Assembly (NCBI RefSeq): GCF_036507355.1
Contig: NZ_AP027877.1
DNA: 64,000 nucleotides
Direction: 5' to 3' (one strand)
Source: Escherichia coli
GTDB taxonomy: Bacteria; Pseudomonadota; Gammaproteobacteria; Enterobacterales; Enterobacteriaceae
Position numbers and translations under genes: made by a program. Position 1 is the stretch's first letter. Every line of letters begins with the position of its first letter. The notes under the pieces were generated by a model, which was not told the origin of the DNA, searched no databases, and saw only the letters and a list, made by a program, of their open reading frames with translations. Of this stretch, positions 13,847 to 15,848 are shown in pieces.

Positions 13847-13883
13847 TGCTAACGTCAGATTGTTGACAAAGTGCGCGTCGTTC

Positions 13884-13984
13884 ATGCCGGATGCGGCGTG
13901 AACGCCTTATCCGGCCTACAAAAATCTTGCCAATTCAATATATTGCAGGACCATGTAGGCCTGATAAGCGTAGCGCATCAGGCA
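13884..13984. repeat. REP/BIME element (two inverted REP palindromes) between fepA and entD
   Basis: gccggatgcggcgtgaacgccttatccggcctaca and tgtaggcctgataagcgtagcgcatcaggc are canonical REP sequences in opposite orientation. Confidence 0.8.
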
Positions 13985-14020: not shown

Positions 14021-14641
14021 ATGAAAACTACGCATACCTCCCTCCCCTTTGCCGGACATACGCTGCATTTTGTTGAGTTCGATCCGGCGAATTTTTGTGA
14101 GCAGGATTTACTCTGGCTGCCGCACTACGCACAACTGCAACACGCTGGACGTAAACGTAAAACAGAGCATTTAGCCGGACGGATCGCTGCTGTTTATGCC
14201 TTGCGGGAATATGGCTATAAATGTGTGCCCGCAATCGGCGAGCTACGCCAACCGGTGTGGCCTGCGGAGGTATACGGCAGTATTAGCCACTGCGGGGCTA
14301 CGGCATTGGCCGTGGTTTCCCGTCAACCGATTGGCGTTGATATCGAAGAAATTTTTTCTGCGCAAACAGCGACCGAATTGACAGACAACATTATTACACC
14401 AGCAGAACACGAGCGACTCGCAGACTGCGGTTTAGCCTTTTCTCTGGCGCTGACACTGGCATTTTCCGCCAAAGAGAGCGCATTTAAGGCAAGTGAGATC
14501 CAAACTGATGCAGGTTTTCTGGACTATCAGATAATTAGCTGGAATAAACAGCAGGTCATCATTCATCGTGAGAATGAGATGTTTGCTGTGCACTGGCAGA
14601 TAAAAGAAAAAATAGTCATAACTCTGTGCCAACATGATTAA
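14021..14641 (+). CDS. entD: Phosphopantetheinyl transferase EntD
   Basis: 206 aa from the ATG at 14021 (MKTTHTSLPFAGH...); the longer track ORF from 13871 runs through the REP element and is not credible. Start could also be the ATG at 14012. Confidence 0.92.
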   Translation: MKTTHTSLPFAGHTLHFVEFDPANFCEQDLLWLPHYAQLQHAGRKRKTEHLAGRIAAVYALREYGYKCVPAIGELRQPVWPAEVYGSISHCGATALAVVSRQPIGVDIEEIFSAQTATELTDNIITPAEHERLADCGLAFSLALTLAFSAKESAFKASEIQTDAGFLDYQIISWNKQQVIIHRENEMFAVHWQIKEKIVITLCQHD

Positions 14642-14661
14642 TTGACAACATCTGGTACGAT

Positions 14662-15130
14662 TCGCCCGCAGCCATCACTGACTGCGGGCGAAAGTGTAAA
14701 GCAGGTGCCTTACCACTCTGACCTGACAACCGGATATGCGGGGATTGCTCCCCGCACAACGGCTACTTCTTCGGTTCGTAAGCGAGAACAGCCTTAAACT
14801 CAATATTACGTTCCTTTACGGTGAACTCACACAGCGAGTCTCCGACCAGAAGCGTAAATCCCAGCACCGTCAAACACAGCACTATGACTGCCACAAGGGC
14901 ATATTTCGTCAGCATGTTTATATTGCCTCCATGCGAAGAAGGGACTACCATCCGAGTTGTTGAGGCTCGGAGTGGCAGCCCCAGGATTGATAGAAATATC
15001 TCCTGGGGCTTCATCTTTCCAGACCTCAGAGTTAACCTGAAACCGGAAAGCTTCAGGCACCCGCCGTTATCTTACCCTTCCTTAGCAAAATAGCTGTTTA
15101 TTTATACAGTGAATCCTGTTTCGGACTTCT
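14662..15130 (-). other. hokE-like type I toxin-antitoxin locus, copy 1 (repeat unit)
   Basis: About 470-bp unit containing a Hok toxin ORF, upstream mok-like leader and a terminal inverted repeat (cgcccgcag...ctgcgggcg); repeated with 503-bp period at 15165-15632. Confidence 0.8.
14763..14915 (-). CDS. hokE: Hok-family membrane toxin (HokE-like), copy 1
   Basis: 50-aa peptide [50 protein letters not shown], typical Hok/Gef toxin with one transmembrane helix. Confidence 0.85.
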
Positions 15131-15164
15131 GTCGGCAAAACTCATCATTGCTCTTAAAACGAAA

Positions 15165-15632
15165 TCGCCCGCAGCCATCACTGACCGCGGGCGAAAGTGT
15201 AAAGCAGGTGCCTTACCATCCTGACCTGACAACCGGATATGCGGGGATTACTCCCCGCACAACGGCTACTTCTTCGGTTCGTAAGCGAGAACAGCCCTGA
15301 ACTCAATATTACGTTCCTTCACCGTAAACTCACACAGCGAGTCTCCGACCAGAAGCGTAAATCCCAGTACCGTCAAACACAGCACTATGACTGCCACAAG
15401 GGCATATTTCGTCAGCATGTTTATATTGCCTCCATGCGAAGAAGGAACTACCATCCAAATTGTCTGGTTTGGAGTGGCAGCCCCAGGGTTGATAGAAATA
15501 TCTCCTGGGGCTTCATCTTTCCAGACCTCAGAGTAAACCTGAAACCGGAAAGCTTCAGGCACCCGCCGTTATCTTACCTTTGCTTAGCAAAATAGCTGTT
15601 TATTTATACAGTAAGTCCTGTTTCGGACTTCT
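15165..15632 (-). other. hokE-like type I toxin-antitoxin locus, copy 2 (repeat unit)
   Basis: Second unit, roughly 95% identical to copy 1 with scattered substitutions and a 1-nt indel in the leader. Confidence 0.8.
15266..15418 (-). CDS. Hok-family membrane toxin (HokE-like), copy 2
   Basis: 50-aa peptide identical to copy 1 except K41R (…[14 protein letters not shown]). Confidence 0.85.
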
Positions 15633-15848
15633 CACTCCCCATTTGATCAACTGAAGCTGAACCCGTTTTTTTCTGCATGCCTCAATCGTCAAAATTCTTC
15701 GCCACCAGCCAGCCGTGCCATAACTTGTCACATTGCAAAAGTAGCCAATTTGCTTCAGTCACCATCACCAAAAAAAGAAATATTCCAGAACTTCCGCATC
15801 TCGCCCAGCCGCTCCGACTTCTATACTGAATAGAAAACGCCAACATAA

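Follow-up and report, generated by a model that had tools for sequence, protein, structure and literature searches.

Two tandem hokE/sokE modules, both apparently intact, are present in the 64 000 nt stretch of Escherichia coli DNA analysed here (the window; assembly GCF_036507355.1, contig NZ_AP027877.1), and their leaders differ in length by a single nucleotide. From alignment and predicted folding, this indel is very probably a polymorphism of the target loop in the hok mRNA and of the tail of the antisense RNA Sok, and the accompanying change to a long upstream reading frame a by-product. A first-pass annotation had instead proposed that the length difference makes or breaks a mok-type leader frame, such that the two copies may differ in translatability or in Sok pairing.

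Two tandem hokE/sokE units between entD and ybdK

Window 14640–15660 contains two direct repeats, each of approximately 503 bp and both on the minus strand, flanked by entD (end 14641) and ybdK (start 15858). Each repeat encodes a small hydrophobic peptide.

14763..14915, minus strand: hokE copy 1 coding sequence, 50 aa and stop (ORF translation; Pfam HOK_GEF, PF01848)
15266..15418, minus strand: hokE copy 2 coding sequence, 50 aa and stop (ORF translation; Pfam HOK_GEF)

Both peptides belong to the Hok/Gef family according to Pfam PF01848 (34 bits for copy 1 and 33.3 for copy 2; cut-off 22), and both match the NCBIfam Hok models with scores under the model cut-offs. HokE of copy 2 differs from that of copy 1 by K41R. 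A protein identical to copy 1 is named HokE by PGAP in E. coli genomes, and every full-length genome match inspected carries two PGAP-annotated hokE genes. A two-copy query is covered to at least 80% in 3346 of 5426 complete E. coli genomes; the maximum identity of the window sequence to complete E. coli genomes in the collection is 98.7–98.9%. Both units are known, annotated hokE/sokE type I toxin–antitoxin loci of E. coli, and the HokE coding sequence is reported to be toxic when overexpressed (10.1101/2025.08.07.668861). Groups of two to six hok copies less than 2 kb apart have been termed Hok 'islets' (bioRxiv 10.1101/2025.08.07.668861), and the present locus resembles them in that a single hok cluster is duplicated in tandem at one site.

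The RNA elements around each coding sequence are as follows.

14907..15062, minus strand: hokE-1 mRNA leader, from the predicted +1 (GGGUGCC) to the hok start, with tac, ucb, an SD-like GGGG and the Sok-target hairpin (Rfam RF01794)
15410..15564, minus strand: hokE-2 mRNA leader (Rfam RF01794)
14703..14710, minus strand: predicted fbi element of copy 1 (AGGCACCU), partner of the mRNA 5' end GGGUGCCU (minimum-energy fold)
15206..15213, minus strand: predicted fbi element of copy 2 (equivalent of the copy 1 element)
14662..14691, minus strand: 3' terminal stem-loop of hokE-1 mRNA (homology with the copy 2 stem)
15165..15194, minus strand: 3' terminal stem-loop of hokE-2 mRNA (reported by sequence scan)

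The full Rfam RF01794 model is matched on the hok strand (1–157 in copy 1), with scores of 86.5 bits in copy 1 and 80.2 bits in copy 2 against a gathering score of 59. The +1 position was assigned by homology with the 5' end of the plasmid R1 hok mRNA. In minimum-energy folds of the full-length mRNAs, tac pairs with fbi (nt 1–8 with nt 353–360 in copy 1, or 352–359 in copy 2), and in both copies ucb pairs with the SD (GCCCCAGG with CCUGGGGC, in silico). The predicted folds of both full-length mRNAs thus resemble the R1-type closed state. The hok/sok (parB) system of R1 shares with these units the Hok/Gef toxin, tac/fbi, sequestration of the SD by ucb, and a Sok-target hairpin with an SD-like element; its cis-antisense Sok of approximately 60 nt, with a free tail of approximately 10 nt (PMC9841398, PMC1635323), has a predicted counterpart here. 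K-12 hokE/sokE (b4415/b4835) has the same ybdK–entD site, a near-identical Hok, the same leader architecture and the same Sok position, but is present as a single copy with IS186 inserted 19 nt past the hokE stop.

That one copy is a decaying pseudo-locus, or that the difference between the copies is an assembly artefact, is most improbable. Copy 2 does have a weaker predicted Sok-target hairpin (−20.3 kcal/mol, compared with −26.2 kcal/mol for copy 1) as well as K41R, and its counterpart in O157:H7 carries L18P. However, an intact 50 aa Hok, tac/fbi, ucb/SD, the terminal stem-loop and the Sok promoter hexamers are retained in both copies, both leaders score above the RF01794 gathering threshold, and both leader alleles recur exactly in hundreds of complete genomes. 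At 99% identity or higher, the leader core of copy 1 (101 nt) is found in 1540 E. coli records and that of copy 2 (100 nt) in 939. Both alleles are common in E. coli, and this recurrence rules out sequencing or assembly error as the source of the indel.

The surroundings of hokE vary between lineages. IS186/IS421-family elements lie just past the hokE stop in two single-copy sequences, L002 (K-12; 1508–2852) and L011 (334–1446), where they are located between hokE and entD and part the 3' (fbi) region from hokE. At positions 1–1493 of L009 and L010 (one of them ST131), two SDR-family oxidoreductase genes replace entD beside a tandem hokE pair; the hokE islet thus does not have the same left-hand junction in every lineage. 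Window 13875–13962, inside a 5' extension of the entD ORF, contains REP-like elements (Rfam ES036, 40.5 bits, above the gathering score; naRNA4, 38.4 bits, below it). The O157:H7 counterpart of copy 2 (L001, hok ATG at 1319) combines K41R with L18P, the latter in the hydrophobic helix, and may encode a weakened toxin in that lineage.

Leader reading frames and a candidate mokE start

Pairwise alignment of the two units (94–96% identity) contains exactly one internal indel, of 1 nt, at alignment column 196. This corresponds to window 14961–14963, 46–48 nt upstream of the copy 1 hok ATG (A at 14915), and confirms the length difference that the first-pass annotation had placed within 14930–14990. 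The differences between the units are clustered: 7 of the 20 within the transcribed unit lie in one 15 nt stretch round the indel (simulated P ~2e-4).

The frame change described in the first-pass annotation is also real. An ORF with a GTG start in copy 2 (15266–15562, minus strand, 98 aa) runs in frame into Hok, and the equivalent GTG ORF of copy 1 (14827–15060, minus strand, 77 aa) does not share the hok frame. Copy 1 is not, as had been supposed, left with only a short frame of 12 codons joined to Hok: its hok frame is open upstream to an ATG at 15014, giving an 83 aa ORF (14763–15014, minus strand).

Alignment of 19 E. coli hokE units, drawn from 11 genomes and the window, reveals two polymorphic 1 nt indel sites in the leader, one in the loop of the Sok-target hairpin and the other, CCAGGA(C)GAU, near −85 with respect to hok. 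Together these generate three leader length classes of 146, 147 and 148 nt. In the 147 nt class (window copy 1 and K-12) the GTG ORF is in frame 2 and extends to +86, and the ORF from ATG(−99) is in frame 0 with hok. In the 146 nt class (window copy 2) it is the GTG ORF that is in frame 0 with hok, the ATG(−99) ORF being in frame 1 with a stop at −32. The 148 nt class, found in four of the five single-copy strains sampled, has the GTG ORF in frame 1, stopping at −32, and the ATG(−99) ORF in frame 2, extending to +86. No indel-spanning ORF has a constant relation to hok among the 19 alleles. The −85 indel is found in L003 (hok ATG 1319), L006, L007, L008, L009 and L010 (ATG 2257) and L011, and is absent from both window copies; it falls in the hairpin formed by ucb and the SD, a segment that doubles as the stem-loop of Sok.

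These data bear directly on the proposal that the indel switches a mok-type leader ORF into or out of the hok frame, or truncates it, so that the copies differ in Hok translatability. The GTG ORF is in the hok frame in copy 2 only, and the copy 2 ORF from the ATG at −98 ends at −32, before the hok SD, whereas the same ATG in copy 1 reads in frame into hok; to this extent the sequences fit the proposal. Against it, the GTG would lie at nt 3–5 of the predicted mRNA, within the tac stem and without an SD, and ATG(−99) is directly 5' of ucb, with a poorly spaced GGAAAG. Among common E. coli alleles, each of the two ORFs is found in every one of the three frames, and the allele class with early termination of one or other ORF is widespread. 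Among 53 HokE-like leaders of other Enterobacteriaceae, the ATG(−99) start was not found and the open GTG-initiated frame was not conserved. The long GTG ORF was accordingly rejected as mok, and the ATG(−99) ORF as a conserved mok. Nor is the frame of characterised mok genes relative to hok conserved (PMC9841398): in K-12, mokC shares the frame of hokC but mokB does not share that of hokB, and in R1 the mok AUG (116–118) is out of frame with the hok AUG (174–176), the mok ORF spanning hok. For R1, it suffices that mok is translated as far as the hok initiation region (PMC9841398). A switch of translatability by way of the indel is thus very unlikely, and the upstream frame change, although real, is probably without consequence.

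In R1, the 5' arm of the hairpin carries GAGG and, 7 nt downstream of it, the mok AUG; a start at the corresponding position relative to the SD-like GGGG was sought in E. coli hokE and is absent. Such an R1-like AUG, 7 nt after GAGG, is present in 9 of the 53 HokE-like leaders (L031, L040, L019, L038, L039, L041, L043, L047 and L056). There the ORF either ends at a UGA over hok codons 2–3 or forms an in-frame fusion with Hok, according to whether the loop is of 8 or 9 nt, and a toggle of the frame with loop length is seen, for example, between L031 and L040, both from Kluyvera. Even in relatives with an R1-like mok start, therefore, the frame is not fixed.

The most plausible candidate for the mokE start, judged from the allele alignment, is an AUG at −36.

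14949..14951, minus strand: AUG at −36 of copy 1, opening a 12-codon extension in frame with Hok (allele alignment)
15452..15454, minus strand: equivalent AUG of copy 2 (allele alignment)

This codon is downstream of the indel and identical in both copies, although it lies as far as 26–27 nt past the SD-like GGGG; it is the sole start codon between the GGGG and hok that is invariant in the 19 E. coli alleles. Of the 53 family leaders, 46 have an AUG at −36, −33 or −32, whose ORF crosses the hok SD in 44, but this conservation is confounded in that the codon overlaps both the 3' arm of the hairpin and, on the opposite strand, the −10 box proposed for Sok (TACCAT or TAACAT). In the family, this ORF is either continuous with hok in the same frame or closed by a UGA that overlaps codons 2–3 of hok. 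Seven family leaders have AUA at this position, giving TACTAT in the −10 box. Identification of Mok coding sequences across the three frames has been reported to be ambiguous (10.1101/2025.08.07.668861), and a literature search for mokE found no relevant open-access paper.

Other small ORFs overlap this region. A four-codon mini-ORF, AUG GAG GCA AUA UAA, begins at −17 (window 14929–14931 and 15432–15434, minus strand); its start is just 5' of the hok SD, which it overlaps, and its stop is 2 nt before the hok AUG. Klebsiella-type leaders without an AUG at −33 have an equivalent AUG at −14 that reads to a UGA at +4. On the opposite strand, ORFs cover the hok leader and the beginning of the coding sequence (14821–15093, plus strand, 90 aa; 15239–15595, plus strand, 118 aa). 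The 90 aa ORF, annotated by PGAP as a hypothetical protein, has no Pfam family, and these antisense ORFs are probably spurious. The 'frameshifted' flags that PGAP often attaches to this hypothetical protein across the leader are explained by the same leader indels.

The Sok-target hairpin and the predicted SokE RNAs

On folding of the leaders, the indel maps to the apical loop (9 nt in copy 1, 8 nt in copy 2) of the hairpin targeted by Sok.

14941..14982, minus strand: copy 1 Sok-target hairpin (sokT), with a stem of 16 bp, a single bulged C and a loop of 9 nt, CCUCAACAA, at 14957–14965 (fold and covariation)
15444..15484, minus strand: Sok-target hairpin of copy 2, same architecture with an 8 nt loop, CCAGACAA, at 15460–15467 (fold and alignment)

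The SD-like GGGG, a homologue of the GAGG that serves as mok SD in R1, stands at the beginning of the 5' arm of the hairpin. Beside the indel, the upper stem is CCGAG/CUCGG in copy 1 and CCAAA/UUUGG in copy 2, so that two G–C pairs are replaced by two A–U pairs through compensatory changes. The structure is also maintained across the family. In 48 distinct hairpins, taken from the E. coli alleles and the 53 HokE-like leaders of other Enterobacteriaceae, 88% of cells are paired, compared with 31–49% when the partner is slid by 1–3 columns. Double-change cells number 61, compared with approximately 20 in shuffles, none of 500 shuffles reaching 61; five pairs have changes on both sides. The stem changes at −41 and −39 are outside the predicted Sok, and the compensation therefore reflects a constraint on the hok mRNA hairpin itself. 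The loop column containing the indel is of 8 or 9 nt throughout the HokE-like family. The lower predicted stability of the copy 2 hairpin could shift the balance between open and closed leader.

Of the target loops of copy 1, copy 2 and K-12, only that of copy 1 has a YUNR U-turn motif (CUCA), and the motif is thus not conserved here. The K-12 loop, CCCGAACAA, is unlike that of either window copy. In strain AR_0006, the L004 unit whose hok ATG is at 815 has a chimeric hairpin, with a 5' arm of the CCCAAA type and a 3' arm of the CUCGG type. This results in upper-stem mismatches and suggests recombination or gene conversion between tandem copies.

Sok is read from the opposite strand of the same DNA, and a change in the target loop is therefore also a change in the 5' tail of SokE. 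The ends of the SokE RNAs were transferred from the annotation of K-12 sokE (b4835), at −103 to −44 relative to the hokE ATG.

14959..15018, plus strand: predicted SokE-1, 60 nt, with a 10 nt single-stranded 5' tail, GUUGAGGCUC, a stem-loop and the 3' end CUUCAUCUUU (homology with K-12 sokE; fold)
15462..15520, plus strand: predicted SokE-2, 59 nt, with the 5' tail GUCUGGUUUG (homology with K-12 sokE; fold)
14923..14951, plus strand: putative sokE-1 promoter, TTGCCT, 17 nt spacer, TACCAT (read by eye)
15426..15454, plus strand: putative sokE-2 promoter, TTGCCT, 17 nt spacer, TACCAT (read by eye)

The hexamers of the putative sokE-1 promoter match the consensus at 8 of 12 positions, with spacing in agreement with the K-12 sokE 5' end, and its −10 box overlaps, on the other strand, the AUG at −36. 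A sigma-70 scan for hok and sok promoters returned none at the scanner threshold, the sok hexamers scoring below it. Both predicted SokE RNAs fold with an unpaired 5' tail of 10 nt followed by a stem-loop, and with the K-12 ends the indel would fall at Sok nt 3–5. In R1, the loop of the refolded hok mRNA is first recognised by an 11 nt Sok tail, which is the rate-determining recognition element (PMC1635323).

The predicted tails of SokE-1 and SokE-2 differ at 5 of 10 positions, and first recognition of the mRNA of the other copy is therefore predicted to be much weaker. Calculated duplex energies for the first 12 nt of Sok with the target hairpin are −24.3 and −21.1 kcal/mol within a copy, compared with −7.8 and −11.5 kcal/mol between copies. 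For full-length Sok and target the values are −126 and −123 kcal/mol within a copy and −101 and −113 kcal/mol between copies; since the full cross-copy duplex is still highly favourable, cross-repression may persist. The suggestion in the first-pass annotation that Sok pairing is altered thus holds, as a prediction, for recognition between copies, and does not hold within a copy, where each Sok is fully complementary to its own mRNA.

Taken with the leader alignment, these results are best explained by two apparently intact modules. The indel is a 9 versus 8 nt length polymorphism in the loop at the tip of the Sok-target hairpin, and, with the predicted Sok ends, equally a change at nt 3–5 of the single-stranded SokE 5' tail, the part that makes first contact with the target loop in R1. 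The two compensatory stem substitutions that accompany it keep the hairpin in both copies. Each Sok remains a perfect match for its own mRNA, while the indel and the neighbouring changes would alter recognition across copies. The frame change in the long upstream ORFs is most probably a by-product, those ORFs being unconserved and the likeliest leader ORF starting at the AUG at −36.

Divergence between copies and possible antisense specificity

The divergence of the recognition elements extends beyond the window. Twelve tandem pairs were examined, of which seven were from E. coli, three from other Escherichia lineages, one from Klebsiella and one from Enterobacter, and the two loops were unlike in all 12. 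In these pairs the divergence of the hairpin top was 2–10 times that of the remainder of the unit, an enrichment whose P value is inflated by their phylogenetic non-independence. Among E. coli alleles, nucleotide diversity is approximately 0.2 in the hairpin top and 0.068 at hok third codon positions, a roughly threefold difference.

Neutral drift offers one possible, if somewhat doubtful, account of this pattern. The loop would tolerate any sequence of 8 or 9 nt, the changes would be inconsequential even for Sok specificity, and hokE itself might be largely inert. Loop sequence and length vary freely among the 53 family leaders, extended cross-copy duplexes of Sok and mRNA stay very stable, and chromosomal hok loci were inactive in post-segregational killing in earlier work (summarised in 10.1101/2025.08.07.668861), all of which would be expected under drift. 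It accords less well with a diversity in the hairpin top that exceeds that of hok third codon positions, with loops that differ in every tandem pair, with compensatory changes that place the hairpin under selection, and with the rate-determining role of the Sok tail in R1.

Conversely, the Sok 5' tail and target loop may be under diversifying selection, forming a specificity code like that of plasmid incompatibility, such that each toxin is controlled separately and by its own antitoxin only. This is a tentative suggestion and, on present evidence, rather an unlikely one. The divergence of tail and loop is consistent with altered cross-recognition between the copies, without amounting to proof of it, and any actual difference in cross-repression is a matter of prediction from the folds and duplex energies.

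In systems such as Sib/ibs, OrzO/OrzP and the copy-control RNAs of plasmids, the choice of target by an antisense RNA among near-identical paralogues can depend on a handful of nucleotides in a recognition loop or tail. SokE-1 and SokE-2 may be comparable to these by analogy. Tandem Hok islets and the difficulty of calling Mok have already been described; that study considered Hok peptides only, with no comparison of Sok tails and target loops between islet copies (10.1101/2025.08.07.668861).

For this locus, the tempting reading that a leader-ORF frameshift renders one copy differently translatable is unsupported, and the real variability is instead placed at the Sok recognition tail and the target loop. 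Discrimination between the copies by their Soks would be an extension of known principles of antisense specificity and not a new kind of system. If such discrimination does occur, duplicated type I modules in E. coli would be independently controlled rather than redundant.
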